Positions 1-39,784 of a stretch of 64,000 nt of DNA are shown in pieces. The stretch is from Marinicella sp. (GTDB taxonomy: Bacteria > Pseudomonadota > Gammaproteobacteria > Xanthomonadales > Marinicellaceae). Location: NCBI GenBank assembly GCA_965230295.1, contig OZ246001.1:864001-928000 (forward strand), in the 5' to 3' direction. How positions within the stretch are numbered: the stretch's first letter is position 1; the number at the start of each line of letters is the position of its first letter. The translations under genes were made by a program, and so were the position numbers. The notes under the pieces are model-generated. The model searched no databases, was not told the origin of the DNA, and saw nothing but the letters and a program-made list of their open reading frames with translations.

Positions 1-100
1 CCATAAAAGTCATGGCCAATATCGTGAACGATGCAATGACTTCAATCAAGGTAAAACCCTGGTTGGCCAGTGGTGGCTTTATGTTTGATCTGCGCATCAT
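1..100 (-). CDS. gspI: T2SS minor pseudopilin GspI (only the 5' part is in the window)
   Basis: Manual translation MMRRSNIKPPLANQGFTLIEVIASFTILAMTFM carries the prepilin G/FTLIE motif; ATGA overlap with the gspH stop; follows gspH. Confidence 0.8.
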   Translation of the reverse strand, partial: MMRRSNIKPPLANQGFTLIEVIASFTILAMTFM

Positions 101-543
101 ATCTCGGTGTCTTTGAACAACCTGATTTCACCAGTTAACCAAGCCACATTGATGCGCCAAAAACGCTCATCATAAATCAAAGTCACTCGACCACCGGTTG
201 AACTGCCATCAGAAAAAAAACGAAACCCCGCTTGATCATCAGCTGGGACTTCTGATGCAGCCGCATAAACCTTCAGCTCCATGCCTTCTGGCAACATAAC
301 CTTGGGTCGACCAGGTGCTTGGTAAGATTTATCACTGACATTGATCATCAAGCGTTGTTCTTTGTGTTTAACCACCGCCTGTGAACGGGTGTAGCGCAAA
401 GCCGCCACCAGATCTTTACTGGCGCCTCTGATCTTGCTGGCTTTCAGAGAGCCTGACATGTTGAAGGCAACGGTGCCAGCCAACACGGCCAGCATCACCA
501 ACACCACCAAAACTTCTATCAATGTAAAACCAGATCGACGCAC
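97..543 (-). CDS. gspH: T2SS minor pseudopilin GspH
   Basis: GFTLIEV N-methylation site; C-terminal FFSDGSSTGG..INVAWLTG typical of XpsH/GspH; follows gspG. Confidence 0.9.
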   Translation of the reverse strand: MRRSGFTLIEVLVVLVMLAVLAGTVAFNMSGSLKASKIRGASKDLVAALRYTRSQAVVKHKEQRLMINVSDKSYQAPGRPKVMLPEGMELKVYAAASEVPADDQAGFRFFSDGSSTGGRVTLIYDERFWRINVAWLTGEIRLFKDTEI

Positions 544-558
544 TGTGATGCCTGTTAC

Positions 559-972
559 TTACTGCCAATTACCGATGTCTGCAGCCAATTTCTCGCCGCC
601 TGGACTCTTGTCTTTACCGTATGAATAGATATCAAACGATTGACCATGTTGGCTGTTGGCAGAAAAGTGGTATGGCTCGCCCCAAGGATCTTTCAAATCC
701 TTTTCTTTGACGTAAGGGCCCATCCACATGGAATCACCATTGTCGTTGTACAACTCACTTAAACTGTCGGGCATGTTGCCTGTGTCTAAATAAAATTCGC
801 TGACTGATTGCGATAATTTTTGCACCATAATCTTGGCTTCTTTGTATTTCGCTTTGTCTTGACCTCCGGTTACATTGGAAACCACCAGACCAAATATCAC
901 GGCCAATATGGTCATCACCACCAGCACCTCAATCAAGCTGAAACCTTGCTGTTTTCTCTTATTGTTCATCAT
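559..972 (-). CDS. gspG: T2SS major pseudopilin GspG
   Basis: GFSLIEV prepilin motif; W.GPY...KDPWG.PY and SYGKD..PGG motifs. Confidence 0.95.
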   Translation of the reverse strand: MMNNKRKQQGFSLIEVLVVMTILAVIFGLVVSNVTGGQDKAKYKEAKIMVQKLSQSVSEFYLDTGNMPDSLSELYNDNGDSMWMGPYVKEKDLKDPWGEPYHFSANSQHGQSFDIYSYGKDKSPGGEKLAADIGNWQ

Positions 973-977
973 AAATA

Positions 978-2189
978 TTATCCTACTAATTCACTCATGT
1001 TCATCATCGGCATCAGGATGGCAAACACAATGGTAAAAATAAAGCCTGCCAAAATCAGTACCAATACGGGCACCAATACCGACAGCATGCGTTCAATGGT
1101 ATTTTTGACTTCACCATCATAAGTATCTGATGCCCTCACCAGCATCTCATCTAAATTGCCTGTTTCCTCACCTACGCTCAATAATTGTTGTGCCAGTTTT
1201 GGAAAGGCTTCTTCTTCGGACAACGCATCTGACAGCGGTGCCCCATGTTTGACTTTTTCTGTGGCCTCCGTGATGGCCTTTAAGATGACCGTGTTGTTGA
1301 TCACTTTTTTTGCCACCGATAAACCCGTTAACAATGGCACACCGCTGTCAGCCAGTGTACCCAGTGTACGGGTGAATTTAGCAGTTTCAACACGCGTAAT
1401 CAATTCGCCGAACAGGGGTAAATTAAGCATGCGTTGGTCCCAGTTATACCGAAATTCGGGTTCTTTGAGTTTTTGCTTAAACAACACCACCACGACGATG
1501 ATCAGCAGCAACAAAACCCACCAAAAACTTTGCACCACAGCAGCGGCCGCAAAGACTATTTGGGTGATCAATGGCAATTCAATGTTGGCATCTTCGAACA
1601 AAGGCTTGAACTTAGGCACCACTTTGGCCAGCAAGATGAACAAAGAACCCACTGCCAACACCATTAAGATGGCTGGATAAATCATGGCTGAAACCACCGA
1701 ATCCCTGAGTTCTTTAGAGCTTTTCAAATAATCACTCAAGCGCTGTAATGACACTTCTAAGGTGCCACCCATCTCGCCAGCCCGGACCATGTTGGTGTAC
1801 ATCGTTGAAAACACCCCATGTTGGTCTTCCAGCGCATCTGACAAAGATCCACCACCACGGACTTTATCACGCACCTGCTCAACCATGTTCCTGACTTTTT
1901 CATCATCGGTCAGATCAATCATCACCGACAAAGAACGATCCAGTGGCATACCTGAATTCAACAAAGTTGATAGCTGTTCAGTGAAAAACCCGACTTGTTT
2001 TTGGGAGATCTTACTGCGCCTGGCCAACAAGTTTTCCAGTGAAAATCCAGGCTTAAGCTCTTTGGCGGATACCGGCATGTTGCCGGCTTCTTGAATTTTA
2101 GCAATCACTTCGGCTTGCGAGGCCGCTTCTAAATGACCTTCTAACTGTTCACCGGTTGGGGTGATTGCTTTGTAGATAAACTGTGCCAT
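978..2189 (-). CDS. gspF: T2SS inner membrane platform protein GspF
   Basis: Two T2SSF repeats (MVRAGEMGG, VGEETGNLD); three TM segments. Confidence 0.95.
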   Translation of the reverse strand: MAQFIYKAITPTGEQLEGHLEAASQAEVIAKIQEAGNMPVSAKELKPGFSLENLLARRSKISQKQVGFFTEQLSTLLNSGMPLDRSLSVMIDLTDDEKVRNMVEQVRDKVRGGGSLSDALEDQHGVFSTMYTNMVRAGEMGGTLEVSLQRLSDYLKSSKELRDSVVSAMIYPAILMVLAVGSLFILLAKVVPKFKPLFEDANIELPLITQIVFAAAAVVQSFWWVLLLLIIVVVVLFKQKLKEPEFRYNWDQRMLNLPLFGELITRVETAKFTRTLGTLADSGVPLLTGLSVAKKVINNTVILKAITEATEKVKHGAPLSDALSEEEAFPKLAQQLLSVGEETGNLDEMLVRASDTYDGEVKNTIERMLSVLVPVLVLILAGFIFTIVFAILMPMMNMSELVG

Positions 2190-3919
2190 TATTCGTGTGA
2201 TACCCTGATTACTTCTTCAAAGCTGGTGTCACCAGCCAAACATTTCAACAAACCATCTTCATACATCGTTAACATGCCTTCTGCTTGTGCTTGTTGTTGC
2301 AACTCACCTGCCGTTGCACCTTTCATCACCATGCGCCTGAGTTCCTCAGACATGGTCAAGCATTCCAGAATCGACATCCTGCCAGAATACCCTGTCGGAT
2401 TTTCTTCTGATGGCCTGGGACGATAAAAGAATATTTCTTTGTCATCTGAAAAACGCTGTAAGTTCAACTCGTCAACCATTTCTGGCATCACCTGATACCG
2501 TTCCATGCTGTTCTTATCCAGGCGGCGCACCAGTCGTTGGGCCAACAACCCATTGACCGTTGAAGTTAATAAATAGTCTTCAACACCCATATCAACCATC
2601 CGGGTGATACCGCCGGCAGCTGAGTTGGTGTGAATGGTTGACAATACCAAGTGCCCAGTTAAGGCTGATTGAATGGCGATTTTGGCCGTTTCTAAATCAC
2701 GCATCTCACCAATCATGATGATGTCCGGATCTTGTCTTACAATGGCCCTCAAGGCAGACGAGAAATCCAGGCCGATGGAAGCTTTGGCTTGAATTTGATT
2801 GATACCTGTCAACTGATACTCTACCGGATCTTCAACCGTAATGATTTTGCGATCTTCGGTGTTAAGCCGCTGCAATGCAGTGTACAAGGTGGTGGTTTTA
2901 CCACTACCGGTTGGCCCAGTCACCAACAGAATCCCATGCGGCATTTCCAGCACTTTTAAAAACGGATTCAAGGTGTGGTCGCGAAAACCCAACTTATCAA
3001 AATCAAAAACAATACTTTCCCGGTCCAAGATACGCATCACCACTGACTCACCATATGAAGTAGGGACAGTCGACACCCTGAGATCCAACTCTTTACCCTG
3101 AACCCGCAGCATGATACGTCCATCTTGCGGTAACCGACGTTCAGCAATGTTCAGCTTAGCCATGATCTTGATACGCGAAATTACCGCTGCAGTTGATCTC
3201 GCTGGCGGCGATTCAACTTCATGTAACACGCCATCCAGGCGGTAACGAACTTTCAATCGGTTCTCAAAAGGTTCTATGTGAATGTCGGACGCTCGAGATT
3301 CTACAGCTCGCTGCATAATCATGTTCACCAATCGAATCACCGGCGCCTCACTGGCCAAGTCTTTCAGGTGTTCAACATCTTCTACTTCACCGCCTTCATC
3401 TGACAGGCCTTCAACCAACTGACCCATGGCAGATTTACCACCGCCATAATATCGCTCTATGGCATTTTCCACATCCGATGGTAAGCCTATCTTGATTTCC
3501 AAGTCCTTTTCAGCAACCATATTAATGGCTTTGGTTAAGTACTCTTCATAAGGATAAACCATCACCACAGTCAACTTTTCCTCATCTTCATCAATTGGTA
3601 CAAATTGGTTCTCACGCATGTATCTGATTGGAAACTCCACATCAACAGATGTACTTTCTGGCAAATCTTTATCACTGAGGATGGGCAGATCCATCAATTC
3701 ATTGATTGACATGGCCACATCACGCTCAGAAGCCAGACCCAACCTGACCAACAATGGCACCAAAGAAACGCCAAAGCTTTCTTTATTCAATCGCAATCCG
3801 CGTTGCAAGTCTTCTTCTTTCAAACGCCCTTGGTCAACCAAGTATTGACTCAGTTGTTGTTCAAAAGTGAGCGGCTTTACTGGCTCAGTTTGTGGTTCTT
3901 CAATTACCTTTTCAGACAT
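2189..3919 (-). CDS. gspE: T2SS ATPase GspE
   Basis: Walker A GPTGSGKT, ASDIHIEP, RQDPDIIMIGEMRD, AALTGHLV-like motif. Confidence 0.97.
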   Translation of the reverse strand: MSEKVIEEPQTEPVKPLTFEQQLSQYLVDQGRLKEEDLQRGLRLNKESFGVSLVPLLVRLGLASERDVAMSINELMDLPILSDKDLPESTSVDVEFPIRYMRENQFVPIDEDEEKLTVVMVYPYEEYLTKAINMVAEKDLEIKIGLPSDVENAIERYYGGGKSAMGQLVEGLSDEGGEVEDVEHLKDLASEAPVIRLVNMIMQRAVESRASDIHIEPFENRLKVRYRLDGVLHEVESPPARSTAAVISRIKIMAKLNIAERRLPQDGRIMLRVQGKELDLRVSTVPTSYGESVVMRILDRESIVFDFDKLGFRDHTLNPFLKVLEMPHGILLVTGPTGSGKTTTLYTALQRLNTEDRKIITVEDPVEYQLTGINQIQAKASIGLDFSSALRAIVRQDPDIIMIGEMRDLETAKIAIQSALTGHLVLSTIHTNSAAGGITRMVDMGVEDYLLTSTVNGLLAQRLVRRLDKNSMERYQVMPEMVDELNLQRFSDDKEIFFYRPRPSEENPTGYSGRMSILECLTMSEELRRMVMKGATAGELQQQAQAEGMLTMYEDGLLKCLAGDTSFEEVIRVSHE

Positions 3920-4006: not shown

Positions 4007-4615
4007 TTACTGACTGTTTTGTTTACTATTGTACTGAGTTATTTCCTCAATAAAACTTCTATTCAATAAAACCCAGGCCATGATGGGCACCACTGCCGGG
4101 ATGATCAAATAGGACAGTTGATACATGGCTGCCACCAGATTGTGACTGATTCCTGTTTGATTGATGGCTTGAAAAGCATCTCCACCACCTGAGAACAACA
4201 AAGACTTACATGTGTCCCAAAATACGCCATTGGCTTGAACCAGACAAATCAGCACATAACCCAATGAGATTTGTATCGCCTTGTTGTAACTCTTCAGAGC
4301 AGGCACAGACAAAACCAAACCTGCAAGTAAGGGTAAGCCATAACCATACTTCATGGGGTTAACCGTTACTTCTATGACGGCCAGTTGGCTCCCCTGGTGT
4401 GGCAGTGATTCAGGAAAAACCAATGTTTGTACTTGAAACATAAAGTTTTGCTGAATGATGCCATTAAATAAATCAGGCTGCCATAGTTGCATCACCCATG
4501 CAGACAACCATTTGATGGGTAACACCAAAACTGGTGCCGCCATAAACCACAAAAAAAAGCACAAAGGTAAATACAACAATGCACTGATCAACAGGGTCTT
4601 AATTGGCGATTTCAT
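4007..4615 (-). CDS. Membrane protein resembling the exosortase H-associated membrane protein
   Basis: About 200 aa with about 4 TM; YLPLCFFLW start and VNPMKYGYGLPLL motif, recognised from memory. Confidence 0.6.
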   Translation of the reverse strand: MKSPIKTLLISALLYLPLCFFLWFMAAPVLVLPIKWLSAWVMQLWQPDLFNGIIQQNFMFQVQTLVFPESLPHQGSQLAVIEVTVNPMKYGYGLPLLAGLVLSVPALKSYNKAIQISLGYVLICLVQANGVFWDTCKSLLFSGGGDAFQAINQTGISHNLVAAMYQLSYLIIPAVVPIMAWVLLNRSFIEEITQYNSKQNSQ

Positions 4616-28842: not shown

Positions 28843-31800
28843 TTACGGAGCAGGTGTGTCGAAACCGTCCGCAAAGATCAAGTCAGGCAATCCTTGTACA
28901 GTTAATGTAACTGTAACAACCACTTGCGCCTCATCAGGATCATCGCTTTCGATACACAGACCAGCTTCATATACACCTGGAGCCAATCCGGTTGAGTCTA
29001 AAGTCACAGTGACATCAGTGTCATCACCCGGAGCTACAGCACCACCAGAAGATGATGTGGTCATCCAAGTTGCACCACATTGGCTGGTTCCAGCTATGTT
29101 GTACCTCAGCTGCTCGAAATTAGGCTCAGCTGTCAAGCCAGGGATTCCAGTCCAATCAGCTACATTAAACGAAATGGGTGAAACCAGTTGAGCAGTCGCT
29201 CCGGCCACATCCGGACCAGCAGCAAACCAAGCCCATCTGGTACCAGCATTGCTTGGGATGTCTTGCGTTGGAAATACAGTTACCCAATAAGTTCCTGCTG
29301 GCAAGTCCAAAGGAGAACCGCCATTAGCTGCTGTCACATCGATGAGGATGTTGTTATCAGTCAGGTCCAGGCTAGGATCAGCAACCGGGATATCCAAAGC
29401 AAACAACTCTGCATTCATGCCATCTTCAGGATGACCCGCTGGAACACCTGCCAGGTCTGCATATACATGTAGTTGAATAGCAGTTGCAGACGTATCCAAT
29501 GAAGCACCATTGGCAAAACCTTCGAAGAACATGGTTGAAATCGATGAATCACCTGTCAGTACAAAGTCATCTGCACTGTAGGCTCCGGCACCATTTCCAC
29601 CATCATCTTGTAAGAAGAAGCCACTGACGATGCCGTTAGTGATGGCACCCGTGCCATCTACTTGCTCGGCAAAAGTCACACTGAAGTTACCAGTACCAAT
29701 AGTCCAGTTCAAATCAGCACCGGCAACTGGAGAGTTGGCGATGTTCAAATTCAAGTCTGTGGTCATGTCGGCATCAAGTGTTGCGCTTAAAGTAGTAGGT
29801 GTCACATCGATGTCTGGCTGCTCTGGGAAACCAGTGACAACCAATGGCAAGTGTAGATCTGACAAGGCTGAAGGAGTAACAAATCTCAAGCCCCAAGTAT
29901 CCAATGTACCAGCATCAAAACTTACGCTGTCACCAGCACAAATGGTCCAATCGCCATCATTGGTCGTGAACACATCTGCCAAAGTTGCTGGCGGTGAAGC
30001 AATCGAACCTGGCGCAGGTGAGAATTCACAAACACCATCATCCTGACAAACCACATCATCAGAGCCTGCAAGTGCTGCTCCCATGTCTTCTGCGGACACC
30101 GCGGCGCCATCAGCATAAGTAATCGGTGAGCTACCTATCAAGTTTGAAGACTCCCCTGAACTACCTGTTCCATCATCAGCCACTTCTACTTCACCGGACA
30201 AACTTTGTAAGCCCAATACCAAAGCATCTGGGTTGGTCAATTTAACAGTCAAGTCTCCTAACCATGTATGCGTTAAACCGGCATCCACTTCCACTGCAAC
30301 TTCTGAACCAGATAAACCTGAAACTGAAATGATGTCACAAGCCATTGTGGCATTGGTTCCATCATAAGCACCATCGGCAATGGCTGCAGCAGGTGCTGAT
30401 GTGAACTCAACAGAATCCGGCGCTGGAACAACCAACAGTTCACCAAAGCTCACCGCACCGGCTGGCAATGCTGCACCATCGATTTCAACATCGATTGTAA
30501 CCACTTGACCAGGGTTGGCGGTAAAGTTGGCAGGATTAACTGTACCTGTCATGCCAGACAAACTGGCATTGTATTCAACTGGGCCAGCCGCTACGCTTCT
30601 GAATTTACGTTGGAAAGTACAAGTACCTACACAGGAGTCATTCTTATAACTGGCAATGTTCAATGTCTTAGGATCACCACCATTGGCAGGATCTGCCTGT
30701 AGGTATCGGAAAGCGGTTTCATTCAAAACCAAGCCTACTGATGAAGCCGCATCAACTTGAACACGTCCAGAACCTCGATCAAATGGATCGGCGACAGTTT
30801 GCTGGTCTTCTTTGGTCATACCAGCAGTGACTGCTGTCATCATCAGAGCAGATCTGATTTCTGGCGCTGTCCAGGTTGGGTGTAACTCTTTCAACAATGC
30901 AGCAGAACCTGCAGTGTGTGGAGACGCCATAGAGGTACCTGAAATGGCACCGTACTCAGCTGGTGTGCCAGTGGAAGGATCACTGTCAGCAAAACCGGCT
31001 AAAATACTCACACCAGGAGCTGCAATGTCAGGCTTATTCACTTCAAACGGACTCGGTCCACGTGAACTGAAACCGGCCAAAGAATCTGCTTGTCCGGCTA
31101 AACTGATGCTTGTTGCTGCTGCAACTGAAACAGTGGCTGTGGGGTTGGCAGTGATGTAAGCAGCCAACTCAGTACCAATGTCTTCACTGACCATGACTGA
31201 AGGCAACGTACTGGTTTCCAAACCACCCATCACGATGGGGTCACCAGGACGGTTGTTGTGGACAACAACACCTGTCGCACCTGCCGCTGTGGCATTGGTA
31301 AGCTTATCTGCAAAAGAACACCCGCCCCTTGAGATCAAGGCAATCACACCAAGAAAGGCATTGGGGTCGGTATAAGCGTTACATCCTTCAATATTGGCTG
31401 GCTCTACAATGCCAGAATAATTGATGGTACCCACCATATCAACTGCCATTGCGGGACCAGTACCTTGAATTGCCAGCGCATCAACCAATGATGGTGCAGG
31501 AGGTACAGGGCCAGTTACCGTTAAAGCATTGCTGAATCTTCTGATGTGTGTAGATGCCGCTGAACTTGTGGTCCAAGGCTCTACATGGCCAGCTGTACCT
31601 GGCCCAGGTCCTGCATTACCACCAGAGGTCGCAACGAAGATGCCTGAATCAGTGGCGCTCAAAAAGGCCAAAGAAGCCGCTTCGCCCCAAGGCGAATTAC
31701 CACCTGAGATGGAGTAGTTGATGGCATTGACTATACCGTCTGCCAGCATTTGGTCAATCGATTCTGCTGCTGCAGAACCAAAACAACCACCGCCAGCACC

Positions 31801-32781
31801 TGGTGCCGGGTTATAGCAGACATCAAAGATAACTAAATTTGCATGACGGGCCACACCACTGATACCAATACCTGTGATGCCACTGAATTCTGCGTCAGTA
31901 ACTAAGTTACCACCCGCAGTAGAAGCGGTATGTGTACCATGGCCATTTTCATCTTCTGGCCCAGGAATGTCCGTACCACCAGGTGGGGTGATGTCAAAAA
32001 CGAAGTCATAACCACCTATGATTTTGTCATTACAAGTGTATGCAGGGTCAAATTGATCCATATTAGTGGGATCACACACACCCAAGTAAAAACCAGATCC
32101 CAAGGGATTGGTGTGGTCGTATGCATCGTCACCAACATCTGCAAAAGATGGGTGATCAAAGTTGGCACCTGAGTCTAAGACACCAATAACAACACCTTCA
32201 CCAAAAGCCATACCACTGGCAGGTGCGGTACCTGTCCAAACGTTATCGGCACCAATCAATTGTGGGCCCTGGTCAGTACTCATGGAATACTCTCGATCCA
32301 ACTCAACGTTTTTAATGCCACCTATTGACCTGATTTCTGCCGCTTCAGCAGCAGTCATTTCAATCACCACGCCGTTCAGCGCGTATTGATAGGTAAAAAT
32401 TGAATCAACATCTCTTCCCAATGTTCCACTGACTGAGCTGAGGAAATTGGTTTGAACTTGTTTCAGGTGCTCTACGTATGCCACAGCAGCGGGGCTTTTA
32501 GAAAGCAAACGGTTGCCTTCGCCACGAGGAATAGGAGCAAATTGGCCAACACCATTGTAGTTAGCTAAAGCTGCCTCTTCGAGCGTTATGATATACCTGC
32601 GTTGGCCCAAAGCATTGGGTGCCGGGATAAATGATCCATTTTGATTAACTTCTTCTGTTAACGATGCACCAACAGAGACTGTATTTGCAGCCTGTACGAC
32701 ATCTGTTTGTGATACTCCAGCCAAACAGACGGCTGACATCACTGAAGCAGTAATCAATGGATTTATTTTTGATTTAGACAT
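28843..32781 (-). CDS. Secreted S8 subtilase (I9-like propeptide, PA domain, Fn3-like, P-proprotein-like and further beta domains)
   Basis: Catalytic triad GVLDSG / GHGTHTAST / GTSMASPH; PA motif ISRGGCSFADK; HTWLGDL.V.L P-domain motif; signal peptide. Confidence 0.93.
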   Translation of the reverse strand: MSKSKINPLITASVMSAVCLAGVSQTDVVQAANTVSVGASLTEEVNQNGSFIPAPNALGQRRYIITLEEAALANYNGVGQFAPIPRGEGNRLLSKSPAAVAYVEHLKQVQTNFLSSVSGTLGRDVDSIFTYQYALNGVVIEMTAAEAAEIRSIGGIKNVELDREYSMSTDQGPQLIGADNVWTGTAPASGMAFGEGVVIGVLDSGANFDHPSFADVGDDAYDHTNPLGSGFYLGVCDPTNMDQFDPAYTCNDKIIGGYDFVFDITPPGGTDIPGPEDENGHGTHTASTAGGNLVTDAEFSGITGIGISGVARHANLVIFDVCYNPAPGAGGGCFGSAAAESIDQMLADGIVNAINYSISGGNSPWGEAASLAFLSATDSGIFVATSGGNAGPGPGTAGHVEPWTTSSAASTHIRRFSNALTVTGPVPPAPSLVDALAIQGTGPAMAVDMVGTINYSGIVEPANIEGCNAYTDPNAFLGVIALISRGGCSFADKLTNATAAGATGVVVHNNRPGDPIVMGGLETSTLPSVMVSEDIGTELAAYITANPTATVSVAAATSISLAGQADSLAGFSSRGPSPFEVNKPDIAAPGVSILAGFADSDPSTGTPAEYGAISGTSMASPHTAGSAALLKELHPTWTAPEIRSALMMTAVTAGMTKEDQQTVADPFDRGSGRVQVDAASSVGLVLNETAFRYLQADPANGGDPKTLNIASYKNDSCVGTCTFQRKFRSVAAGPVEYNASLSGMTGTVNPANFTANPGQVVTIDVEIDGAALPAGAVSFGELLVVPAPDSVEFTSAPAAAIADGAYDGTNATMACDIISVSGLSGSEVAVEVDAGLTHTWLGDLTVKLTNPDALVLGLQSLSGEVEVADDGTGSSGESSNLIGSSPITYADGAAVSAEDMGAALAGSDDVVCQDDGVCEFSPAPGSIASPPATLADVFTTNDGDWTICAGDSVSFDAGTLDTWGLRFVTPSALSDLHLPLVVTGFPEQPDIDVTPTTLSATLDADMTTDLNLNIANSPVAGADLNWTIGTGNFSVTFAEQVDGTGAITNGIVSGFFLQDDGGNGAGAYSADDFVLTGDSSISTMFFEGFANGASLDTSATAIQLHVYADLAGVPAGHPEDGMNAELFALDIPVADPSLDLTDNNILIDVTAANGGSPLDLPAGTYWVTVFPTQDIPSNAGTRWAWFAAGPDVAGATAQLVSPISFNVADWTGIPGLTAEPNFEQLRYNIAGTSQCGATWMTTSSSGGAVAPGDDTDVTVTLDSTGLAPGVYEAGLCIESDDPDEAQVVVTVTLTVQGLPDLIFADGFDTPAP

Positions 32782-33059
32782 AAATTTGTCCTCTCCTTTT
32801 TTTCATTGAATTAATTAAATATAAATATATTGTATAAATTACAAAGCCTAATGATTTGGGTGCCCCTTATAATCATGTTAATTACACACAATTCATTTAG
32901 CCTAAGGATACTACACAAGCATAAGTTGAAAATCAAGCAAGATTGAAACCGATTTTAAGTTTAACGTTTAATGGGCGCATTTATCGTTAAATCAGCCAAA
33001 AGGGGACGCGCATTAATGGCGCATTCCAAGACATCAAGTGGGAGCCTAAATCAATCCCG

Positions 33060-33068
33060 TGATAGAAT
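33060..33068 (+). promoter_or_regulatory. Extended -10 element, probable leaderless start
   Basis: TG-A-TAGAAT, 6 nt upstream of ATG 33075; no SD. Confidence 0.55.
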
Positions 33069-33074
33069 GCGCAA

Positions 33075-33644
33075 ATGAAAAAAATGTTGCTTATTTATTT
33101 CACCCTTTGGATACCGTTTTGTGGCATCGCCAATGACAATCAATCAGAAGATGAACACTTGTACGATGGTGTTGACTACCGCTGGTATTGGAACACCAAC
33201 ATTGGCATTGTGGTGCCTGATGATGATGTGCGTCTGAACGAAGCCCAAGTTTTGGATTTGAGGGTCGGCAAACACTTCAATGAAAACTGGGCGTTAGAAT
33301 TCGAAGTGATGCGAGATGAGTATGATTTTGACATTGATTTTGATCTCAAACACTATGCCGCAGGATTAAATGTGTTGTACACCAATCACGACCCGCTTTG
33401 GAAACCATACTTCTTGGTGGGGGTGGGTGGTATTTATTCAGACTCCCGATTTCCTGATACACAAGATTCAGACTTGATCGTTAACTTGGCCATTGGTGGT
33501 TCCTGGTACTTTACCGGCAATGGTGTTCGCATCAGGGCTGAAGCCAGATCGCGTTTGGACACCAATGATTCTGACTTACCAGGACAGGATGGTTTTGGCG
33601 ATGGCCAATTCACTATAGGCATCATCGTGCCAATTGGAGATTAA
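33075..33644 (+). CDS. Small outer membrane beta-barrel (OmpA-like TM domain)
   Basis: Signal peptide, alternating beta strands, WALEFE and KPYFLVGVG motifs. Confidence 0.8.
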   Translation: MKKMLLIYFTLWIPFCGIANDNQSEDEHLYDGVDYRWYWNTNIGIVVPDDDVRLNEAQVLDLRVGKHFNENWALEFEVMRDEYDFDIDFDLKHYAAGLNVLYTNHDPLWKPYFLVGVGGIYSDSRFPDTQDSDLIVNLAIGGSWYFTGNGVRIRAEARSRLDTNDSDLPGQDGFGDGQFTIGIIVPIGD

Positions 33645-33650
33645 AAAACT

Positions 33651-34346
33651 TCAAAGGAATGGCAACACCCAACCGCTGCTTTTTTTGTAGGCTTGCCATT
33701 CCGGGTAACGAGACAAGCTTTGTTCTTTGGCAATCATATTAGGTACAAAAACCAACAACCACACCAGCGCCAATATCAAGGCTGCCAGCCAGTGCCAAGC
33801 CAATAGCGCAAAGGATCCATAGATCATCATCTCACCCAAATAATTTGGGTGGCGTATGTATTTGTACAGACCATCATTGATCAAACCGGCTTTATATTTT
33901 AAAATGTAATGTTTCTGGGCATCGGCAGCAATCATGATCACACAACCCAGTAAGCACATAAAAACGCACATCGAAAACCACCAAGCATCACTGAATGGGT
34001 AATCAGGCGTTTGGGGTTGTTTGATCAATAACCAAGCAATCACCCAATACCAAAAAAGCACCCCAAAGAATGCCATCAGGCCGGCTCCTATTGTGACCTT
34101 TTTCTGCCAATTGGCATCGGGAAAACTCAAATCTTTCAACAACCAAACAAAACCATAACCACCGTGTAGAGCCAAATACAAATAAGCCGCCATTGAATCA
34201 TTTTGGTAATAGACCATCATCAGAATGACCACCACAAAAGTGGTTGCTTTCTGGAAGTTGATGACCCAGGATAGTTTCCAGGGTTTGGGCCCACCTAAAA
34301 AATCAGTGGTTAAATGGTCAGCCAATTGTTTTAAAAATGTCATCAT
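33651..34346 (-). CDS. DUF1295/steroid 5-alpha-reductase-like membrane protein
   Basis: ADAQK and GLYKYIRHPNYLGE motifs. Confidence 0.8.
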   Translation of the reverse strand: MMTFLKQLADHLTTDFLGGPKPWKLSWVINFQKATTFVVVILMMVYYQNDSMAAYLYLALHGGYGFVWLLKDLSFPDANWQKKVTIGAGLMAFFGVLFWYWVIAWLLIKQPQTPDYPFSDAWWFSMCVFMCLLGCVIMIAADAQKHYILKYKAGLINDGLYKYIRHPNYLGEMMIYGSFALLAWHWLAALILALVWLLVFVPNMIAKEQSLSRYPEWQAYKKSSGWVLPFL

Positions 34347-34368
34347 ATTCGCTGCTCAGTTTAATGGC

Positions 34369-35478
34369 TCAATACAAAGATTTCAAAGACTCTGCTGTAT
34401 AGGGCAGCATAGAATCCCAATCATCGGCCTGCAGTTTTTGTACCCAATGAGGGTCTTGCAGTAAACACCGGCCCACGGCCACCAAATCATAGTGGCCCGC
34501 TGCCAATGCCTGTTCAATCATTTTGAATTGATCTGTGGCTATGTTTGAGTGGGTATTCATACCGCGTTTGGCTTCATCCACAAACCCGCCATCCAAACCC
34601 ACACTGCCCACTGTGATGGTGGGTTTCCCAGTGATTTTTTTGGTCCACCCAGCGAGGTTCAATTCTGAACCGGGAAACTCAGGCTCCCAAAAACGACGGG
34701 TTGAACAATGAAACACATCGACCCCTGCAGCAGCCAACGGGCTTAAGAAAGCATCCAGTTCTGTCGGGTTATGCGCCAGTTTTGCATGGTAATTCTGCAA
34801 CTTCCATTGTGAATAGCGCAACATGATTGGAAAATCAGTGCCAACAGCTGTGCGCATGGCGGTGATCATTTCCACTGCAAACCGGGTTCGCTCTCTGATT
34901 CCGCCAGCATACTTGTCGGTTCTTAAATTCGTTTTATCCCAAAAAAACTGATCCAACAAATAGCCGTGAGCACCGTGAATCTCCACCCCATCAAAGCCCA
35001 GCTGCTGGGCCTGCTCAGCGGCCAATACAAAAGCTTCAATGATCGCATCAACATCAGTTTGGGACATGGACTCACCATTCGGTTTGTTGGGTGACAACAA
35101 GCCAGAAGGGCTGTAAGCAGGCACCGAGTCATCAGGTTGCAGACAATCTTTCCTGACCCCGCCGACATGCCACAATTGGGGCATGATTTTACCACCCTCG
35201 GAATGGACCGCCTGAACCACTTTGTGCCAGCCGGCCAAAGCATCTTCACCATAAAAGAAAGGAACATCCGGATATCCATTGGCGGCTTGGTGCCCCACGC
35301 ATGTGCCTTCGGTGATGATCAGTCCCACATCATTGGCAGCTCGTCTTTGGTAATAATCAATGTTCTTTTGGTTGGGTACATGCCCTGGAGATGAGCTGCG
35401 AGTCATCGGAGCCATCACCACACGGTTTTTGAGTTTCAATGAGCCCAACTCAAACGGACTGAATATATGCTGCATCAT
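34369..35478 (-). CDS. NADH:flavin oxidoreductase (old yellow enzyme family)
   Basis: LKNRVVMAPMTR, QLWHVG and GFDGVEIHGAHGYL motifs. Confidence 0.93.
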   Translation of the reverse strand: MMQHIFSPFELGSLKLKNRVVMAPMTRSSSPGHVPNQKNIDYYQRRAANDVGLIITEGTCVGHQAANGYPDVPFFYGEDALAGWHKVVQAVHSEGGKIMPQLWHVGGVRKDCLQPDDSVPAYSPSGLLSPNKPNGESMSQTDVDAIIEAFVLAAEQAQQLGFDGVEIHGAHGYLLDQFFWDKTNLRTDKYAGGIRERTRFAVEMITAMRTAVGTDFPIMLRYSQWKLQNYHAKLAHNPTELDAFLSPLAAAGVDVFHCSTRRFWEPEFPGSELNLAGWTKKITGKPTITVGSVGLDGGFVDEAKRGMNTHSNIATDQFKMIEQALAAGHYDLVAVGRCLLQDPHWVQKLQADDWDSMLPYTAESLKSLY

Positions 35479-36020
35479 GCTTTCAATTGTTGACTCAGCA
35501 GCTGCAGCGAATCCAATGCTTTATCAATAAAAGCCGTCGTTCTTTCATCAATCAAATCTCCCTGATCGTTGAATTTATCAGATGCCCGACCTATCATCAC
35601 TTCTGGCTTGTTTACCACAAAGGCATTCATAAAAACCAAAATTTGTCGCAAGTGGTATTGGCTCCGGGCGGTGCCCAGTCCAGGACTGGCACCCATGATG
35701 GACACCGCTTTACCATTAAACGCCTGGTTGTCCACTCTGGAAAACCAGTCTATGGCATTTTTCAACACGCCGGAAACGGAATAGTTGTATTCGGGAGAAG
35801 CCAAAACAATCGCATCAGCTCTTGCCAACAACTCATGTGCCTGCTGAACCACATCAGGTATACCTTGTGCATTGAGGTCTTGGTCATACAGCGGAAAGCC
35901 ACTGATGTCCACCTCAATGTATTCAATACCTTTGTTGTTTAAATGGGATGCCACTGCACGTAAGATGCCTTTGTGCATGGAGTGCTTTCTTAAACTGCCT
36001 GAAATACCTGCTATTTTCAT
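35475..36020 (-). CDS. NADPH-dependent FMN reductase (ChrR-like)
   Basis: SGSLRK.S and SPEYNYSVSGVLKNAIDW motifs. Confidence 0.92.
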   Translation of the reverse strand: MKIAGISGSLRKHSMHKGILRAVASHLNNKGIEYIEVDISGFPLYDQDLNAQGIPDVVQQAHELLARADAIVLASPEYNYSVSGVLKNAIDWFSRVDNQAFNGKAVSIMGASPGLGTARSQYHLRQILVFMNAFVVNKPEVMIGRASDKFNDQGDLIDERTTAFIDKALDSLQLLSQQLKA

Positions 36021-36082
36021 GTTGAAGGTGATGAAAATAATAAATTATAACGTCAGTGGGTGAAAATAGTGTAGTTACCTTT

Positions 36083-36123
36083 GAAGAACTGTTAGACAGT
36101 TCGACCAGCGCAGGTGATGTAAG
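36083..36123 (+). repeat. Dispersed intergenic repeat copy 3 (truncated)
   Basis: GAAGAACTGTTAGACAGTTCGACCAGCGCAGGTGATGTAAG matches copy 1 at 36/41. Confidence 0.7.
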
Positions 36124-36322
36124 AACCCCGTTAAAAACTTGAACCACATCACAAGCTTATATTAAGCAAACGTTAATTAAATAAGAATTAACTGTGTCTT
36201 AACATTAGATTCAAATTTCTTCCTCAATTCATTCACATTTGAACCTTAACTTTAACAGCGTGAGGACTTGGTACCAGGTTGAAGGTTCACAATCACTTTC
36301 TGAATGAACTAAGGAGAAAATA

Positions 36323-38026
36323 ATGAAAACAATGCATACTCTGATTGGCATCATGATGATGACAACAATCGCTCAAGCACAAAACCGACCACCCAACCAG
36401 GGTGGCCCAAACAACAACCCCAACGACAATGAAAATGTAGTATCCCCTGCCAGGCGGATAGAACGAGGTCCTCGGCCTCCACAGAACCAACCACCACTTG
36501 ATGACCGGTTTCGTTCCATCGATGGCAGTGGTAATCACCCAACCATTGACGACATGGGAAAAGCACACACCCAATTGGTCAGGCTGGTAGAAAATGGTTA
36601 TGCAGATGGCATAGCCGAATTGGCTGGCAATACAAGAAACAGTGCCAGGCTGATCAGCAATGCCGTCAGCGCCCAGACCGAATCGATGCCGAACAACAAA
36701 GGTGCCACTGATTTTGTGTGGCAATGGGGACAATTCCTTGATCATGACATTGATCTGACTGACGGTGTCGATCCTGCAGAACCTATTGACATCAGTGTGC
36801 CAGCGGGTGATGTCTATTTTGATCCGAACAACACAGGAACTGTGACCATTTCAATGAACCGCTCTATCTATGACACATCAACAGGCACAGCAACAGATAA
36901 TCCCAGGCAACAAATCAACGAAATCACAGCCTGGATTGATGCTTCCAATGTGTATGGCTCAGATTCTGAGCGTGCCAATGAACTGCGAACTTTAGATGGT
37001 ACAGGCCAATTGAAAACTTCAGCCGGCAACCTATTACCCTTCAATGTGAATGCTTTTCCTAATGCAGGAGGCGACAGCCCTAATCTGTTTCTGGCAGGTG
37101 ATGTCAGGGCCAATGAGCAAATCGGCTTAACGGTGATGCACACTTTATTTATGCGTGAACACAATTGGCATGCCAATCGCCTCAAAGCCGAGAACCCTGA
37201 TTGGTCAGGTGACAGAATTTATGAAGAAGCACGGGCCATCGTAGGGGCCGAAATGCAAGTGATCACTTACTATGAATACTTGCCCACTTTACTTGGGCGC
37301 AATGCGCTGCAACCTTATAGACGTTATAACGATCGCATTCATGCAGGTATTGCCAATTTATTTTCTGGAGCAGTGTTCCGTTATGGCCACAGCGCACTCA
37401 GTCCTCAACTGTTAAGAATCAATGCGCAAGGCAATGAAATTACAGCTGGACATTTGCCATTAAGAAATGCGTTCTTTTCACCTTATCGCTTAGCCACTGA
37501 AGGCGGCATTGAACCCCTATTAAGGGGGCTGGCCACACAAGTGTGCCAGCAAGTCGATAATTTCATCATCGATGATGTCCGTAACTTTCTATTTGGCGCA
37601 CCTGGTTCAGGTGGTTTCGATTTGGCTTCATTGAATATTCAACGAGGCAGGGATCATGGCTTGCCAGCCTACAATGATGTGCGAGAAGCTTATGGCTTAG
37701 AGCGCAAACAATCATTTGCAGACGTGACTTCAGATCCTGAGAAACAAGCTGCATTGGCATCGGTGTATAAATCAGTGGATGACATTGATTTGTGGGTAGG
37801 CGGATTGTCAGAAGACCTTGTTCGTGGTGCACTGGTGGGCGAATTGATCCAAACAGTATTGGTTGAACAGTTCACAGCTTTGAGAGATGGTGACCGGTTT
37901 TATTTTGAGAACCAAATGGATCGAAGACAAGCAGATCGGATCAGAAGCACACGATTATCAGACATCATCAGGCGCAATTCAGATATTGGATCTGAAATTC
38001 AAAACAATGTCTTTAGAATTGAGTGA
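36323..38026 (+). CDS. Secreted animal-type heme peroxidase (peroxidase-cyclooxygenase superfamily)
   Basis: WGQFLDHD (distal Q/D/H), GDVRANE (R, E), FRYGHS (proximal H), NIQRGRDHG, LRDGDRF; signal peptide; SD AAGGAG. Confidence 0.95.
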   Translation: MKTMHTLIGIMMMTTIAQAQNRPPNQGGPNNNPNDNENVVSPARRIERGPRPPQNQPPLDDRFRSIDGSGNHPTIDDMGKAHTQLVRLVENGYADGIAELAGNTRNSARLISNAVSAQTESMPNNKGATDFVWQWGQFLDHDIDLTDGVDPAEPIDISVPAGDVYFDPNNTGTVTISMNRSIYDTSTGTATDNPRQQINEITAWIDASNVYGSDSERANELRTLDGTGQLKTSAGNLLPFNVNAFPNAGGDSPNLFLAGDVRANEQIGLTVMHTLFMREHNWHANRLKAENPDWSGDRIYEEARAIVGAEMQVITYYEYLPTLLGRNALQPYRRYNDRIHAGIANLFSGAVFRYGHSALSPQLLRINAQGNEITAGHLPLRNAFFSPYRLATEGGIEPLLRGLATQVCQQVDNFIIDDVRNFLFGAPGSGGFDLASLNIQRGRDHGLPAYNDVREAYGLERKQSFADVTSDPEKQAALASVYKSVDDIDLWVGGLSEDLVRGALVGELIQTVLVEQFTALRDGDRFYFENQMDRRQADRIRSTRLSDIIRRNSDIGSEIQNNVFRIE

Positions 38027-38109
38027 ACTTGATAAAACCCGCCAAAAACCAGGCGTACTTCGGTACAAAAATGGCTGTTTGGTCCAGAGAAGCCAATACA
38101 TATAAGATG

Positions 38110-38146
38110 ATACAAAGGAAAGCTGCTGAGCAGCTTTCCTTTGTAT
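38110..38146. terminator. Perfect 17-bp inverted repeat between convergent genes
   Basis: ATACAAAGGAAAGCTGC-TGA-GCAGCTTTCCTTTGTAT. Confidence 0.65.
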
Positions 38147-38191
38147 TGGGTCCATGAATTTTTCCCTTAATGTAACCACTACAGTCCGGGT

Positions 38192-39784
38192 CTATTCAAA
38201 ACCATGGATAAAAATTTCATCCACCTGTGTCAATGTCAGAAATTGGTCCGCCAACACGTTTTGATATTTGTTGACTGTTCCGTCAGGCCAAGTCACTTTC
38301 AATAAATCAATGACATTGGCAGACCCAAGACCAAAATGTTGGGTAGTTGGTTCAGTAGATAAATAATTATTCCCCAGACTCACTGATCTGGTTAAGGTGG
38401 TGTTGCCATTGATGGTTGCTTCTATTTTCGCACCAACTGCATCAATATTATCTATACCACCTTGCAATTTGACCATTAAATAATGATTGGTTGTGACGAT
38501 GTTGTTTTGATAAAAAGCAGACATCTGATCATTGTTATTAATCAATATATCAATTTTTCCATCCCGGTTCTGATCGAAACACAACACCGCCCTGCCCATG
38601 CCATCATCATCCACATTGTATTCTTGGGCACGGTCAACAAAAGTGCCATTTCCGGCATTGATAAACAATCTGGCTCTGTCAGTGATGAAATCAGGGTCTG
38701 GGTAACCATTGACATGGTAAATATCCAATAGACCATCGTTGTTAAAATCAGCAAAACAACTGCCCCAACCCCAGCCACCATCTCGAACCCCGGCAGACTC
38801 GCTGATGTCAGTGAAGTTGCCATGACCATCGTTTTGGTACAAGCGATTGCCTGTCCTACCACCGGGATCTAAATATATAGATGTCACAAACCAATCCATA
38901 TCACCGTCATTATCAAAATCACCCACAGAAGCGCCCATGCCATGTTCATCGGTTAACACCGATGGATCTTGAGTGATCATAGACTGACCAGTACTCTTGT
39001 AGTAATTAGAATATCCATAGTCACTGGCCACCATCATGTCAATATTTTGATCGTTGTTGAGGTGGTTAAAACTGATGGTAAAAGAAAATGGGTTCACAAC
39101 AGTCAGCCATTGGTTGGTGACATCACTGAAAACGCCCGCACCATTATTTTCCCACAACAATTGATCATCAGTATAACCCCAATGAGAAATGGCCAAATCA
39201 AGATCACCGTCACCATCAAAATCAGCAGCAGACGTGCTGTAATTGTCTGTATGAGGCAAGCCTGAACCCGCTGATATGTCTACAAAGCCAGTGTTTGCAT
39301 TGTTCTTATATAACCGCACCCAACCTGTGTTAACCAACCCCTCAGGGCTCACACCTCCGATGATCAAGTCCCTCAACCCGTCACCGTCAATGTCAGCAAT
39401 CAGTGGACCTGATGAATACATGTCTTGAGGATTTAAATTGAATGCCACGGCTTGATCGACAAAATTACCTTGACCGTCTGAAATCAACAGCTTGTTAGGC
39501 GTTAAATTAACCCCGTTGACATCAACCAAAGCACCTGTACTGACAAATATGTCTTCCCATTGATCACCATTGACATCACCAATGGCCATTCCACCCCCCA
39601 AAACTATAGGCAAATTCCCGAAATGAGCTGGTGTATTTCTGTGTTGATAACTCAAGCCGACCTCCACAGATTTCTCAATAAAACCAGTACCGCCAGCCAC
39701 TGCCATGCCAGGCTCGGCAACCATCAATAATAAGATTAAATATTTTTTAAATTTTCCCACGATAAGTTGGCCCACATGTAACAC
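38192..39784 (-). CDS. CRTAC1-family FG-GAP repeat protein with ASPIC/UnbV domain
   Basis: Repeated DxDGDGxxD loops, GWGWG..FADFNNDG, and HFGLG....D.L.V.WPDG; start uncertain. Confidence 0.9.
   Translation of the reverse strand: MLHVGQLIVGKFKKYLILLLMVAEPGMAVAGGTGFIEKSVEVGLSYQHRNTPAHFGNLPIVLGGGMAIGDVNGDQWEDIFVSTGALVDVNGVNLTPNKLLISDGQGNFVDQAVAFNLNPQDMYSSGPLIADIDGDGLRDLIIGGVSPEGLVNTGWVRLYKNNANTGFVDISAGSGLPHTDNYSTSAADFDGDGDLDLAISHWGYTDDQLLWENNGAGVFSDVTNQWLTVVNPFSFTISFNHLNNDQNIDMMVASDYGYSNYYKSTGQSMITQDPSVLTDEHGMGASVGDFDNDGDMDWFVTSIYLDPGGRTGNRLYQNDGHGNFTDISESAGVRDGGWGWGSCFADFNNDGLLDIYHVNGYPDPDFITDRARLFINAGNGTFVDRAQEYNVDDDGMGRAVLCFDQNRDGKIDILINNNDQMSAFYQNNIVTTNHYLMVKLQGGIDNIDAVGAKIEATINGNTTLTRSVSLGNNYLSTEPTTQHFGLGSANVIDLLKVTWPDGTVNKYQNVLADQFLTLTQVDEIFIHGFE

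Follow-up and report, generated by a model that had tools for sequence, protein, structure and literature searches.

A nine-residue C-terminal peptide shared by unrelated exported proteins of Marinicella: a probable address or docking label not described before

[quoted passage not shown] In type IX secretion (T9SS), the C-terminal domain (CTD), a signal for outer-membrane translocation and surface attachment, is a folded beta-sandwich domain of roughly 70-100 residues. The C-terminal secretion signals of the type I system (T1SS) are found on cargo without an N-terminal signal peptide, and canonical PDZ ligands end in a hydrophobic residue. For the T2SS, the prevailing view, as given in the accessible sections of two papers, places the determinants in structure and not in a linear motif (PMC7949064; PMC12369372). 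The same sections of the second paper describe how the PDZ domain of GspC picks a subset of T2SS substrates, with a signal that can be grafted onto a reporter (PMC12369372). According to the available part of a preprint, GlyGly-CTERM and MYXO-CTERM cargo need the T2SS for surface delivery (bioRxiv 10.1101/2023.06.07.544157).

We analyzed a 64,000-nucleotide stretch of a Marinicella sp. genome, hereafter the window. Two unrelated exported proteins encoded there end in the same nine-residue peptide, the GFE tail or tag, which is common to about 70 other exported proteins. Both genes are assigned to the minus strand because plus-strand translations show nothing at these positions, and the motif coordinates given by a first-pass annotation of the window were borne out by the ORF translations (Table 1). 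The S8 subtilase begins with MSKSKINPLITASVMSAVCLAGVSQTDVVQA and ends in ...GLPDLIFADGFDTPAP (ORF translation); its Pfam matches are Peptidase_S8, PA, Inhibitor_I9, and a weak P-domain. The second protein (ASPIC protein) matched FG-GAP_3, FG-GAP, and UnbV_ASPIC and is 522-530 aa long depending on the start codon, with 530 aa from the first start and 527 aa in its database form (P0001). The two proteins have no Pfam family in common and both translations have hydrophobic N-termini, in agreement with the annotation, which had described an otherwise unrelated pair.

Table 1 Coordinates of the tagged genes and of the T2SS-associated genes in the window.
Feature	Position	Strand	Basis and remarks
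Xps-type T2SS operon, 5' part	97..3919	minus	NCBIfam and gene list
xpsH	97-543	minus	NCBIfam
xpsG	559-972	minus	NCBIfam
xpsF	978-2189	minus	NCBIfam
xpsE	2189-3919	minus	NCBIfam
NF041730 "exosortase H-associated" membrane protein	4007..4615	minus	NCBIfam, 163 bits; directly upstream of xpsE
Cargo 1: exported S8 subtilase, 1312 aa	28843..32781	minus	ORF translation and Pfam; I9 propeptide, S8 with PA insert, C-terminal beta domains
Tail of S8 subtilase	28846..28884	minus	Tag DLIFADGFD 28858-28884, then TPAP 28846-28857; stop 28843-28845
Cargo 2: exported FG-GAP/UnbV_ASPIC (CRTAC1-like) protein	38192..39784	minus	ORF, Pfam, and AF2 model
Tag DEIFIHGFE of cargo 2	38195..38221	minus	Ends at the stop (...QVDEIFIHGFE); stop 38192-38194

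The whole genome (4.0 Mb, 44% GC) was scanned as six-frame ORFs of at least 30 aa (n = 69,662) and as called genes of at least 100 aa (n = 3222). The strict motif IF..GF[DE] occurs 63 times among the six-frame ORFs, 28 times exactly at the stop and 50 times within 11 residues of it. A relaxed form, [ILVMFWY]F..[GSA]F[DE], gave 94 copies among the called genes, 72 of which lie no more than 12 residues from the C-terminus, compared with 0.81 expected under uniform placement. The 72 tagged ORFs fall into 42 blastp clusters, 33 of them singletons. A crude signal-peptide test was positive for 53 of these 72 genes and for 1050 of 3150 others (Fisher p 8e-12), and N-termini read by eye were signal-peptide-like in at least 65 of the 72 proteins. 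The proteome scan proposed by the annotation therefore found the motif abundant and enriched at the ends of signal-peptide proteins, and its idea of a proteome-wide end-tag, one per protein on unrelated cargo, is supported.

These counts bear on whether the tail has any function at all. Among the 72 tails there are 70 distinct 21-nt coding strings, in which all synonymous codons are in use, so the tail is conserved at the protein level and a DNA repeat is excluded. The DNA pattern for F..GF[DE] followed by a stop matched 46 times in the genome versus 3 times for the reversed control pattern. A functionless feature arising by chance, from repeats, or at the DNA level is refuted, and has next to no likelihood, given the ~90-fold terminal enrichment, the diversity of coding strings, the occurrence of the same peptide in this 44% GC genome and in high-GC genomes, and the 0-8 matches of reversed-pattern controls.

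The tag consensus is D-[LVI]-I-F-x-[DN]-G-F-[ED], nine residues in all; the final residue is E in 44 and D in 28 of the 72 tails, and in this genome Ile is dominant before the first Phe and His is allowed before Gly. Between 1 and 12 residues trail the motif in 34 of the 72 tags. Some copies are internal, with 90-2294 residues of what looks like real protein after them, and rare N-terminal placement also occurs. Since trailing residues and internal placement occur, the tag does not need a free C-terminus. A ligand of the PDZ/DegS type would have a hydrophobic or aromatic last residue and a free carboxylate; the tails end in E or D, and 34/72 continue beyond it. Given this tolerance of trailing residues and of rare internal or N-terminal copies, recognition would probably depend on a small turn or hairpin formed by the F-x-[DN]-G-F core rather than on the carboxylate.

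In an AF2 model of the 527-aa ASPIC protein (pLDDT 91.4), the last strand spans residues 511-516; no secondary structure is predicted for the tail (517-527), and block 521-527 has a mean pLDDT of 53. This model and the ASPIC homologues support the annotation's placement of the tail beyond the last folded domain as a flexible appendage. The beta-strand that it had proposed was not borne out by the model, which predicts no hairpin for the tail either. Among 120 ASPIC homologues, about half stop directly after the last strand. Others carry at this position TM-plus-basic anchors (P0045, P0046, P0063), T9SS-type domains (P0051, P0083, P0092, P0096), or a dockerin (P0050), and further homologues end with GFE tails or a longer F.DGFESGDLS.W form. 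The tail is kept in orthologues of 42-87% identity (P0002, P0004, P0015), with degenerate forms in addition. Judged from these homologue sequences, the tag occupies the slot in which relatives carry sorting or anchoring modules. An apparent internal GFE motif followed by a 95-aa domain in P0043, P0044, P0064, P0065, and P0070 was discarded, since these IFWFGFD-type matches arise by chance within another kind of C-terminal domain.

The first-pass annotation had noted that the tail has neither a TM helix nor a basic end and set it apart from CTERM signals. Consistent with this, NCBIfam CTERM models matched neither the two full proteins nor any of five isolated tails (5/5) at E up to 10, and all 72 tails end 0-12 residues past GF[DE] without a hydrophobic stretch, so that they lack the tripartite CTERM layout. 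Exosortase H is present in this genome, where the best IPTL_CTERM match, on another protein, scored 15.2 bits, below the cut-off. In five genomes of relatives, IPTL_CTERM matches numbered 1-5 in each and 12 of 13 exceeded the cut-off; among nine IPTL C-termini that could be read cleanly a GFE-like motif lies upstream in one. Exosortase H is therefore an unlikely tag-processing enzyme, as it has its own few IPTL substrates in relatives and 8/9 of the C-termini read have no GFE motif upstream. More generally, a periplasmic or outer-membrane peptidase or transpeptidase could remove the tail and possibly attach a lipid or glycan anchor in its place, in the way that PorU treats the CTD in T9SS. The tail sits where cleaved sorting signals sit, the presence of exosortase H would suit such processing, and the variable residues after GF[DE] would be irrelevant if discarded beyond a cleavage point. 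However, the tail lacks a TM segment that would keep the substrate at a membrane enzyme, exosortase H has its own substrates in relatives, no candidate enzyme co-varies with the tag, and internal copies precede long stretches of apparently real protein. We regard processing as improbable.

To follow the tag across genomes, we counted F.[DN]GFE anywhere and called a genome tag-positive at 12 or more matches. This replaced the stop-adjacent DNA pattern, which undercounts lineages with trailing residues; in genome G045, for example, 17 of 18 fetched sites were near-terminal tags with 0-11 trailing residues. The tag was abundant in 96 of 151 sampled genomes of the order, with 0-7 matches for reversed-pattern controls, and [LIV]-F-x-[DN]-G-F-[ED] was found order-wide on many unrelated signal-peptide proteins, at the C-terminus or close to it. 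None of the 200 other genomes in the class sample was tag-rich (0-8 F.[DN]GFE matches each). Among the genomes sampled, the tag is thus restricted to one gammaproteobacterial order, a spread that fits the similar tails that the annotation had mentioned for Dokdonella/Wenzhouxiangella-type proteomes. The tag has been lost genome-wide in some sister lineages (G091 versus G106; genus g7 versus g25). In G106, one tagged cargo has no homologue (E<=1e-10) in the tag-less congener G091, an anecdotal case (n = 1) of cargo and tag lost together.

This distribution also bears on a cis-acting role, in which the tail would shield the C-terminus from tail-specific or DegP-type proteases, or aid folding or solubility, with no dedicated reader. 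Such a role fits the failure of our searches to find a reader and the lack of structure in the AF2 model, and periplasmic PDZ proteases that read C-termini are universal, hence invisible to profiling. A generic protective end, however, would not be limited to one order, and neither genome-wide loss in sister lineages nor a strict nine-residue consensus over 42 unrelated families would be expected of it. We give a cis-acting element a slim chance and consider it likely that a reader acting in trans recognises the tail as a sorting or docking tag.

Gene co-occurrence across the 151 genomes served as a search for the reader of the tag, which is new here. The remainder of the Xps operon (xpsI to xpsD, then the lipoprotein gene p144, p473, and p420) lies beyond the window on its upstream side; of these genes, p420, located downstream of xpsD, shows poor conservation and was set aside. 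The exosortase H-associated NF041730 was found in 96/96 tag-positive but also in 26/55 tag-negative genomes, and its distance to xpsF is 2.4-3.2 kb in at least 20 genomes. As a necessary condition, it is the closest correlate of the tag that we found. The p473 surface-protein family followed closely (95/96 and 25/55), and XpsF is nearly universal in the order (95/96 and 53/55; 148/151 overall). A second T2SS with a PDZ-bearing GspC (TIGR01713, E<=1e-9), which this genome also has, was present in 89/96 tag-positive and 13/55 tag-negative genomes.

In mixed families, tag, NF041730, and GspC change together. In family f2 only G138 carries all three, in family f12 the three occur in G029, G050, G067, G083, G155, and G106, and within genus g41 GspC is present in G106, with 25 tags, but not in G091, with 0 tags. 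Exceptions were found for every candidate, and none of the four tested (NF041730, p473, XpsF, PDZ-GspC) matches the tag distribution over the 151 genomes. NF041730 and p473 occur in tag-less genomes (all nine of g7, 13-14 of family f8, and G091), and outside the order NF041730 is present in 7 of 199 genomes; the five of these that were examined have no tags. The PDZ-GspC system was rejected as a required reader because seven of the 96 tag-positive genomes have no TIGR01713 match at this threshold. Five f8 genomes have 15-27 tags without such a match, and the two tag-positive f8 genomes examined, G025 and G135, have a single secretin locus of the Xps type. Conversely, all nine g7 genomes have PDZ-GspC yet only 1-6 motif matches. 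NF041730, intended as a specificity control, failed as such: it tracked the tag no less closely than GspC, and the candidates therefore cannot be told apart by profile. The profile reflects few independent loss events and may mark only a shared secretome lifestyle. Phylogenetic profiling, as the annotation had suggested, yielded co-occurring genes, of which NF041730 and p473 are also present in about 25/55 tag-less genomes. As for its suggestion of the T2SS as the tag machine, a T2SS always accompanies the tag but is near-universal in the order (XpsF in 148/151), and PDZ-GspC was not found in 7/96 positives. No tagged gene was found in 20 gspCDEF loci fetched. The available part of a preprint reports IssA, a T2SS-dependent subtilase of Dyella japonica MF79, encoded 5 kb upstream of its T2SS cluster; within ~12 kb upstream of NF041730, no S8 gene was found in G067, G050, G155, G106, or G029.

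The p473 family raises a different possibility, that the tail binds a cell-surface scaffold (a p473-like surface protein or LPS) non-covalently after secretion. Like a dockerin or SLH module, it would keep enzymes and adhesins on the cell without being an address for a secretion machine. The slot shared with anchors and dockerins in ASPIC homologues is consistent with this, and tolerance of trailing residues and of internal or N-terminal placement is expected of a docking peptide. The family, named "cell surface protein family" in the ESM Atlas, is present in nearly all tag-positive genomes (95/96). This genome has 11 p473 paralogues, three of which directly adjoin tagged genes compared with 0.39 expected (permutation p 0.005). 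No Foldseek match to p473 was found in PDB at E<=0.001; a VIA-wide comparison gave only a generic beta-sandwich of lectin-like type for the N-terminal domain (residues 36-234), with Z scores of 8.6 to 1nc7 and about 5 to galectins, which would also suit a scaffold. On the other hand, p473 occurs in 25/55 tag-less genomes, one paralogue itself ends in a GFE-like tail (DLIYLDGFEN), so that the family looks like cargo, and a nine-residue peptide is small for stable docking. We consider such docking possible but rather unlikely.

We favor the reading of the tail as a tag, probably an address or docking label not described before. The nine-residue peptide would be a lineage-specific label, a flexible tail on Sec-exported proteins of dozens of unrelated families, that takes effect once the protein has passed the Sec system, whether in the periplasm or at the outer membrane. 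There it may serve as the address for the step in which folded proteins cross the outer membrane or are placed on it. We infer that this step could be type II secretion together with accessory genes travelling with the Xps operon (NF041730 and the p473 family), helped in most lineages by the second T2SS with its PDZ-bearing GspC. We hold this T2SS link tentatively, as a credible assignment that falls somewhat short of being expected. In its strongest form, the tail would be the first linear, transplantable T2SS secretion signal, sufficient to take a folded periplasmic protein across the outer membrane, with the small-turn nonapeptide captured by an extended Xps component or by the PDZ domain of the second GspC. 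This strong form we think unlikely.

A nine-residue tag would offer a directly testable handle on T2SS substrate choice. Throughout most of the order, a genome has roughly 30-120 exported proteins that carry the tag, and profiling narrows the search, as the tag is accompanied in the sampled genomes by the Xps-operon extension of NF041730 (96/96) and p473 (95/96). Even a surface-docking tag would define a large exoproteome class (proteases, FG-GAP/ASPIC, and beta-helix proteins). Localisation in Lysobacterales/Marinicella-type bacteria would also be predicted better with the tag, and the peptide could be put to use as a very small tag for secretion or display.

We found no description of the tag in the abstracts and article text searched, and no NCBIfam model describing it; "GFE" is absent from the available part of the myxosortase preprint (bioRxiv 10.1101/2023.06.07.544157). 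The closest parallels are PEP-CTERM/exosortase, IPTL-CTERM/exosortase H, GlyGly-CTERM/rhombosortase, and MYXO-CTERM/myxosortase, which likewise place one tag on each of many unrelated Sec-exported proteins. The GFE tag shares with these tripartite signals the extreme C-terminal position, many cargo per genome, lineage restriction, and the same slot in homologues. Unlike them, it is only nine residues long, has no TM helix and no basic cluster, and tolerates trailing residues and internal copies. Like the T9SS CTD, it is a C-terminal non-membrane element on Sec-exported cargo, and some ASPIC homologues have a CTD at that position; the GFE tail differs in consisting of nine unstructured residues, and T9SS CTD models (Por_Secre_tail-type) in Pfam and NCBIfam matched neither the subtilase nor the ASPIC protein. 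In contrast to T1SS cargo, GFE-tagged proteins have signal-peptide-like N-termini.

With the VesB system of V. cholerae, as presented in the accessible sections of PMC12369372, this genome shares a PDZ-GspC, which co-occurs with the tag in 89/96 positives; the VesB signal, however, is no linear peptide but is located in an Ig domain that is folded. Unlike PDZ-dependent T2SS cargo, the tag also occurs in seven genomes in which the PDZ-type T2SS was not found. Finally, the tag resembles the beta-signal of outer-membrane proteins and the YxF ligands of the DegS PDZ domain, which are short aromatic C-terminal motifs read after Sec export, but it differs from both in ending in E or D, often with trailing residues.

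The GFE tag, a C-terminal peptide of about nine residues (D-x-I-F-x-x-G-F-[DE]), is carried by two proteins of the window, an S8 subtilase and an FG-GAP/ASPIC protein. ORF translation placed both genes on the minus strand and found the motif coordinates of the first-pass annotation to be exact. The first protein contains Inhibitor_I9/Peptidase_S8/PA domains and the second FG-GAP/UnbV_ASPIC domains (Pfam). With no Pfam family in common, the two cargo proteins are unrelated, as had been proposed. The tail also differs from known CTERM signals, as claimed: no NCBIfam model was placed on either tail, and a scan of five isolated tails at E up to 10 returned no C-terminal sorting model. Between the two genes lies one for a protein of the animal haem peroxidase family whose N-terminus is hydrophobic. 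A 3164-aa ORF that runs past the window end has a signal-peptide-like N-terminus and no GFE tail.

Positions of the tagged genes and other features discussed in the text
Feature	Window position	Genome position or fetched locus	Strand	Detail
S8 subtilase ORF	28843..32781		(-)	1312 aa, end GLPDLIFADGFDTPAP; ORF translation
Motif of S8 subtilase	28858-28884		(-)	
FG-GAP/UnbV_ASPIC ORF	38192..39784		(-)	522-530 aa, end QVDEIFIHGFE-stop; ORF translation
Motif of ASPIC protein	38195-38221		(-)	
Animal haem peroxidase family protein	36323-38026		(+)	PF03098, E 2.4e-160
3164-aa ORF start	62769-64000	926769-936263 (whole ORF)	(-)	
Xps-type T2SS operon, 5' end	97-3919			xpsH, xpsG, xpsF, xpsE
NF041730	4007-4615		(-)	directly upstream of xpsE
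p473, secreted		L001:8496-9917 = 855496-856917	(-)	473 aa, a short way upstream of the window, after xpsD and a small lipoprotein
Second T2SS, gspC(PDZ)-D-E-F		L002, 654370-659829		
Second T2SS, gspG-H-I-J-K		2607984-2611115		separate pseudopilin block
XrtH		L056:1303-1842 = 2414699-2415238	(+)	TIGR04177, 163 bits
Best IPTL-CTERM candidate		2285626-2286402		258 aa, 15.2 bits
Protein with N-terminal motif		1551084-1558106	(-)	2340 aa, outside the window

According to an AF2 model (52 input sequences, mean pLDDT 91.4), the tail is not part of the last ASPIC domain. The last strand spans residues 511-516; no secondary structure is predicted for the tail (517-527), in which the block 521-527 has a mean pLDDT of 53. 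This removes the possibility that the tail is an integral strand of that domain, and gives no support to the "beta-strand" tail suggested at first. The [DN]-G core may make a turn, judging from residue propensity; AF2 predicts no such turn. Homologues vary at this end. Among the best 120 of 5333 ASPIC homologues, about half (~55-60, by eye) stop a few residues past the last strand (…AADQLLTISHP), 8, including the query, have the strict GFE tail, ~15 have degenerate tails (LFESRFD, IFKGDFE and similar) and 5 have the longer form F.DGFESGDLS.W. Other C-termini were TM+basic anchors (P0045, P0046, P0063), T9SS-type domains (P0051, P0083, P0092, P0096) and a dockerin (P0050). Of the named homologues, a CRTAC1-family protein of Marinicella sp. 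is the closest (47% identity).

We analyzed the tag across the source genome, a single contig of 4,008,074 bp (44% GC). Among 69,662 six-frame ORFs, strict IF..GF[DE] occurred in 63 copies, 28 stop-adjacent and 50 within 11 residues of the stop. In the 3222 called genes, 72 of 94 copies of [ILVMFWY]F..[GSA]F[DE] were found at most 12 residues from the C-terminus, where uniform placement would give 0.81. The consensus of these 72 tails is D(52/72)-[VLPI]-I(60/72)-F-x-[DNS](62/72)-G(60/72)-F-E(44)/D(28). They are encoded by 70 distinct 21-nt strings in which every synonymous codon is used, so it is the peptide that is under selection. The motif is the exact C-terminal end in 38 tails and is followed by 1-12 residues in 34. 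As the first-pass annotation had anticipated, the terminal motif was enriched among exported proteins: a crude signal-peptide score was positive for 53/72 tagged proteins vs 1050/3150 others (Fisher p 8e-12), and at least 65/72 had signal-peptide-like N-termini when read by eye. Clustering of the tagged cargo by blastp, with the last 20 residues removed, gave 42 clusters, of which 33 were singletons and the largest contained 15 members; the three S8 proteases fell together in one cluster. The 22 non-terminal matches were mostly chance occurrences in cytoplasmic or membrane proteins. Four were canonical (DLIFA.GFE): three of these had 90, 162 and 311 residues downstream of the tag, and the fourth, DLIFATGFE in a 2340-aa protein, directly followed the signal peptide. 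One protein contained a tandem double tag.

A first DNA pattern, F..GF[DE] followed by a stop, was matched many times in most of the order's families (reversed-pattern controls, 0-8), but stop-adjacent patterns undercount lineages with trailing residues. In G045 (genus g25, family f7), 17 of 18 fetched sites (loci L070-L087) were near-terminal tags followed by 0-11 residues; 16 of the 17 had 1-11 extra residues and were therefore missed by stop-adjacent searches. Tail style is lineage-specific. Counted anywhere, at least 12 matches to F.[DN]GFE were found in 96 of 151 order genomes, termed tag-positive; two f1 genomes (G097, G154) fell below this threshold yet had 10 and 11 stop-adjacent matches. 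Tag-negative genomes included 18/19 of f2, 12/18 of f12, 14/19 of f8 and all nine of genus g7, which is almost tag-free, in contrast to its tag-bearing sister genus g25 and to genera g19 and g58 in f7. In a class-wide sample (n=201), F.[DN]GFE had 30 matches in this genome vs 0-8 in the other 200, and a stricter I-F pattern 28 vs 0-2, so that, within the genomes searched, the tag was abundant in none from outside the order. Of the 200 genomes with low counts, two (G196, G274) are unpublished, and the claim is independent of both.

The genome encodes two T2SSs, one Xps-type; a phmmer scan of the proteome found no second copy of gspL or gspM. The first-pass annotation had proposed phylogenetic profiling of the tag, which we carried out for its reader, the cell component presumed to recognise it. 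GspC (TIGR01713, E<=1e-9) was found in 89/96 tag-positive and 13/55 tag-negative genomes, the 'exosortase H-associated' membrane protein NF041730 in 96/96 and 26/55, the p473 family in 95/96 and 25/55, and XpsF in 95/96 and 53/55. The tag-positive genomes in which TIGR01713 was not found at this threshold were G025, G037, G055, G135 and G147, all of f8, and G151 and G026. GspC and NF041730 track the tag in the families of mixed status, f2 (G138 only) and f12 (G029, G050, G067, G083, G155, G106), and in genus g41 GspC alone of the profiled families distinguishes G106, with 25 tags, from G091, with 0. NF041730, chosen as a specificity control for GspC, co-varied with the tag as well as GspC did. 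The profile therefore depends on a small number of independent gains or losses and is unable to single out the reader. Profiling yielded co-occurring genes (NF041730, p473, GspC) and no single reader. A PDZ-bearing GspC as a necessary condition fails in f8; the one full-length secretin of G025, and likewise that of G135, belongs to an Xps-type locus.

Among the sampled genomes, none carried the tag while lacking the Xps operon in its NF041730/p473-extended form. In at least 20 genomes (f1, f2 (G138), f4, f5, f7, f8, f12), NF041730 and xpsF lie 2.4-3.2 kb apart, and Xps operons without NF041730, such as the plain one of G058, were found in tag-less genomes. GspC, NF041730 and p473 are all present in the nine g7 genomes, which have almost no tags. 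Outside the order, 7/199 genomes contained NF041730; five of the seven were checked and had background tag matches only. The gspCDEF genes are syntenic with ftsE/ftsX in several of 20 fetched loci (six families). In GspC of f7, six residues are deleted immediately ahead of the conserved G-[VF]-R-[VL] PDZ strand (alignment A2, columns ~293-300, L043-L045), and the deletion is shared by the tag-poor genus g7 and the tag-bearing g25.

The reading we consider most likely, though tentatively, is that the tag would serve as a post-Sec address for an outer-membrane step and would be read by T2SS-linked machinery. The main rival, a docking tag acting after secretion on a surface scaffold with the p473 family as possible partner, is rather doubtful. 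This genome has 11 p473 paralogues with a conserved GLLAQYGxLFxHK end, three of which directly adjoin tagged genes (0.39 expected, p 0.005). The p473 model (AF2, pLDDT 85) has an N-terminal domain predicted to be lectin-like, resembling TM1070 and galectin-like sandwiches; Foldseek gave no PDB match, and p473 belongs to no Pfam or NCBIfam family. However, one of the paralogues has DLIYLDGFEN as its own C-terminus, and p473, distributed across the order as NF041730 is, persists in tag-less genomes. A processing site and a cis-acting element are both improbable readings of the tag. We found no description of the GFE tag in the article texts searched, nor by a term search of the text of the myxosortase preprint. 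Our analysis contributes the profiling of the tag and the correction of motif counts for trailing residues.

Xanthomonas XpsC is reported to have a helix in place of the PDZ of other GspC proteins (PMC11981180). The V. cholerae GspC PDZ is described as needed for one substrate only, VesB, whose signal, an Ig fold, was transferable to a reporter (PMC12369372). A published T2SS-dependent exoprotein from a tag-bearing genus is IssA of Dyella japonica MF79 (bioRxiv 10.1101/2024.05.07.592856). Exosortase H (XrtH) is encoded 1.5 Mb from NF041730 in this genome, in which no IPTL-CTERM protein scored above the model cut-off. In five relatives, IPTL_CTERM matched 1-5 times per genome, with 12 of the 13 matches scoring above the cut-off, vs 17-104 GFE motif matches, and a GFE-like motif lay upstream in one of nine cleanly readable IPTL C-termini. 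The GFE tag is therefore a class apart from IPTL-CTERM, and a much larger one.
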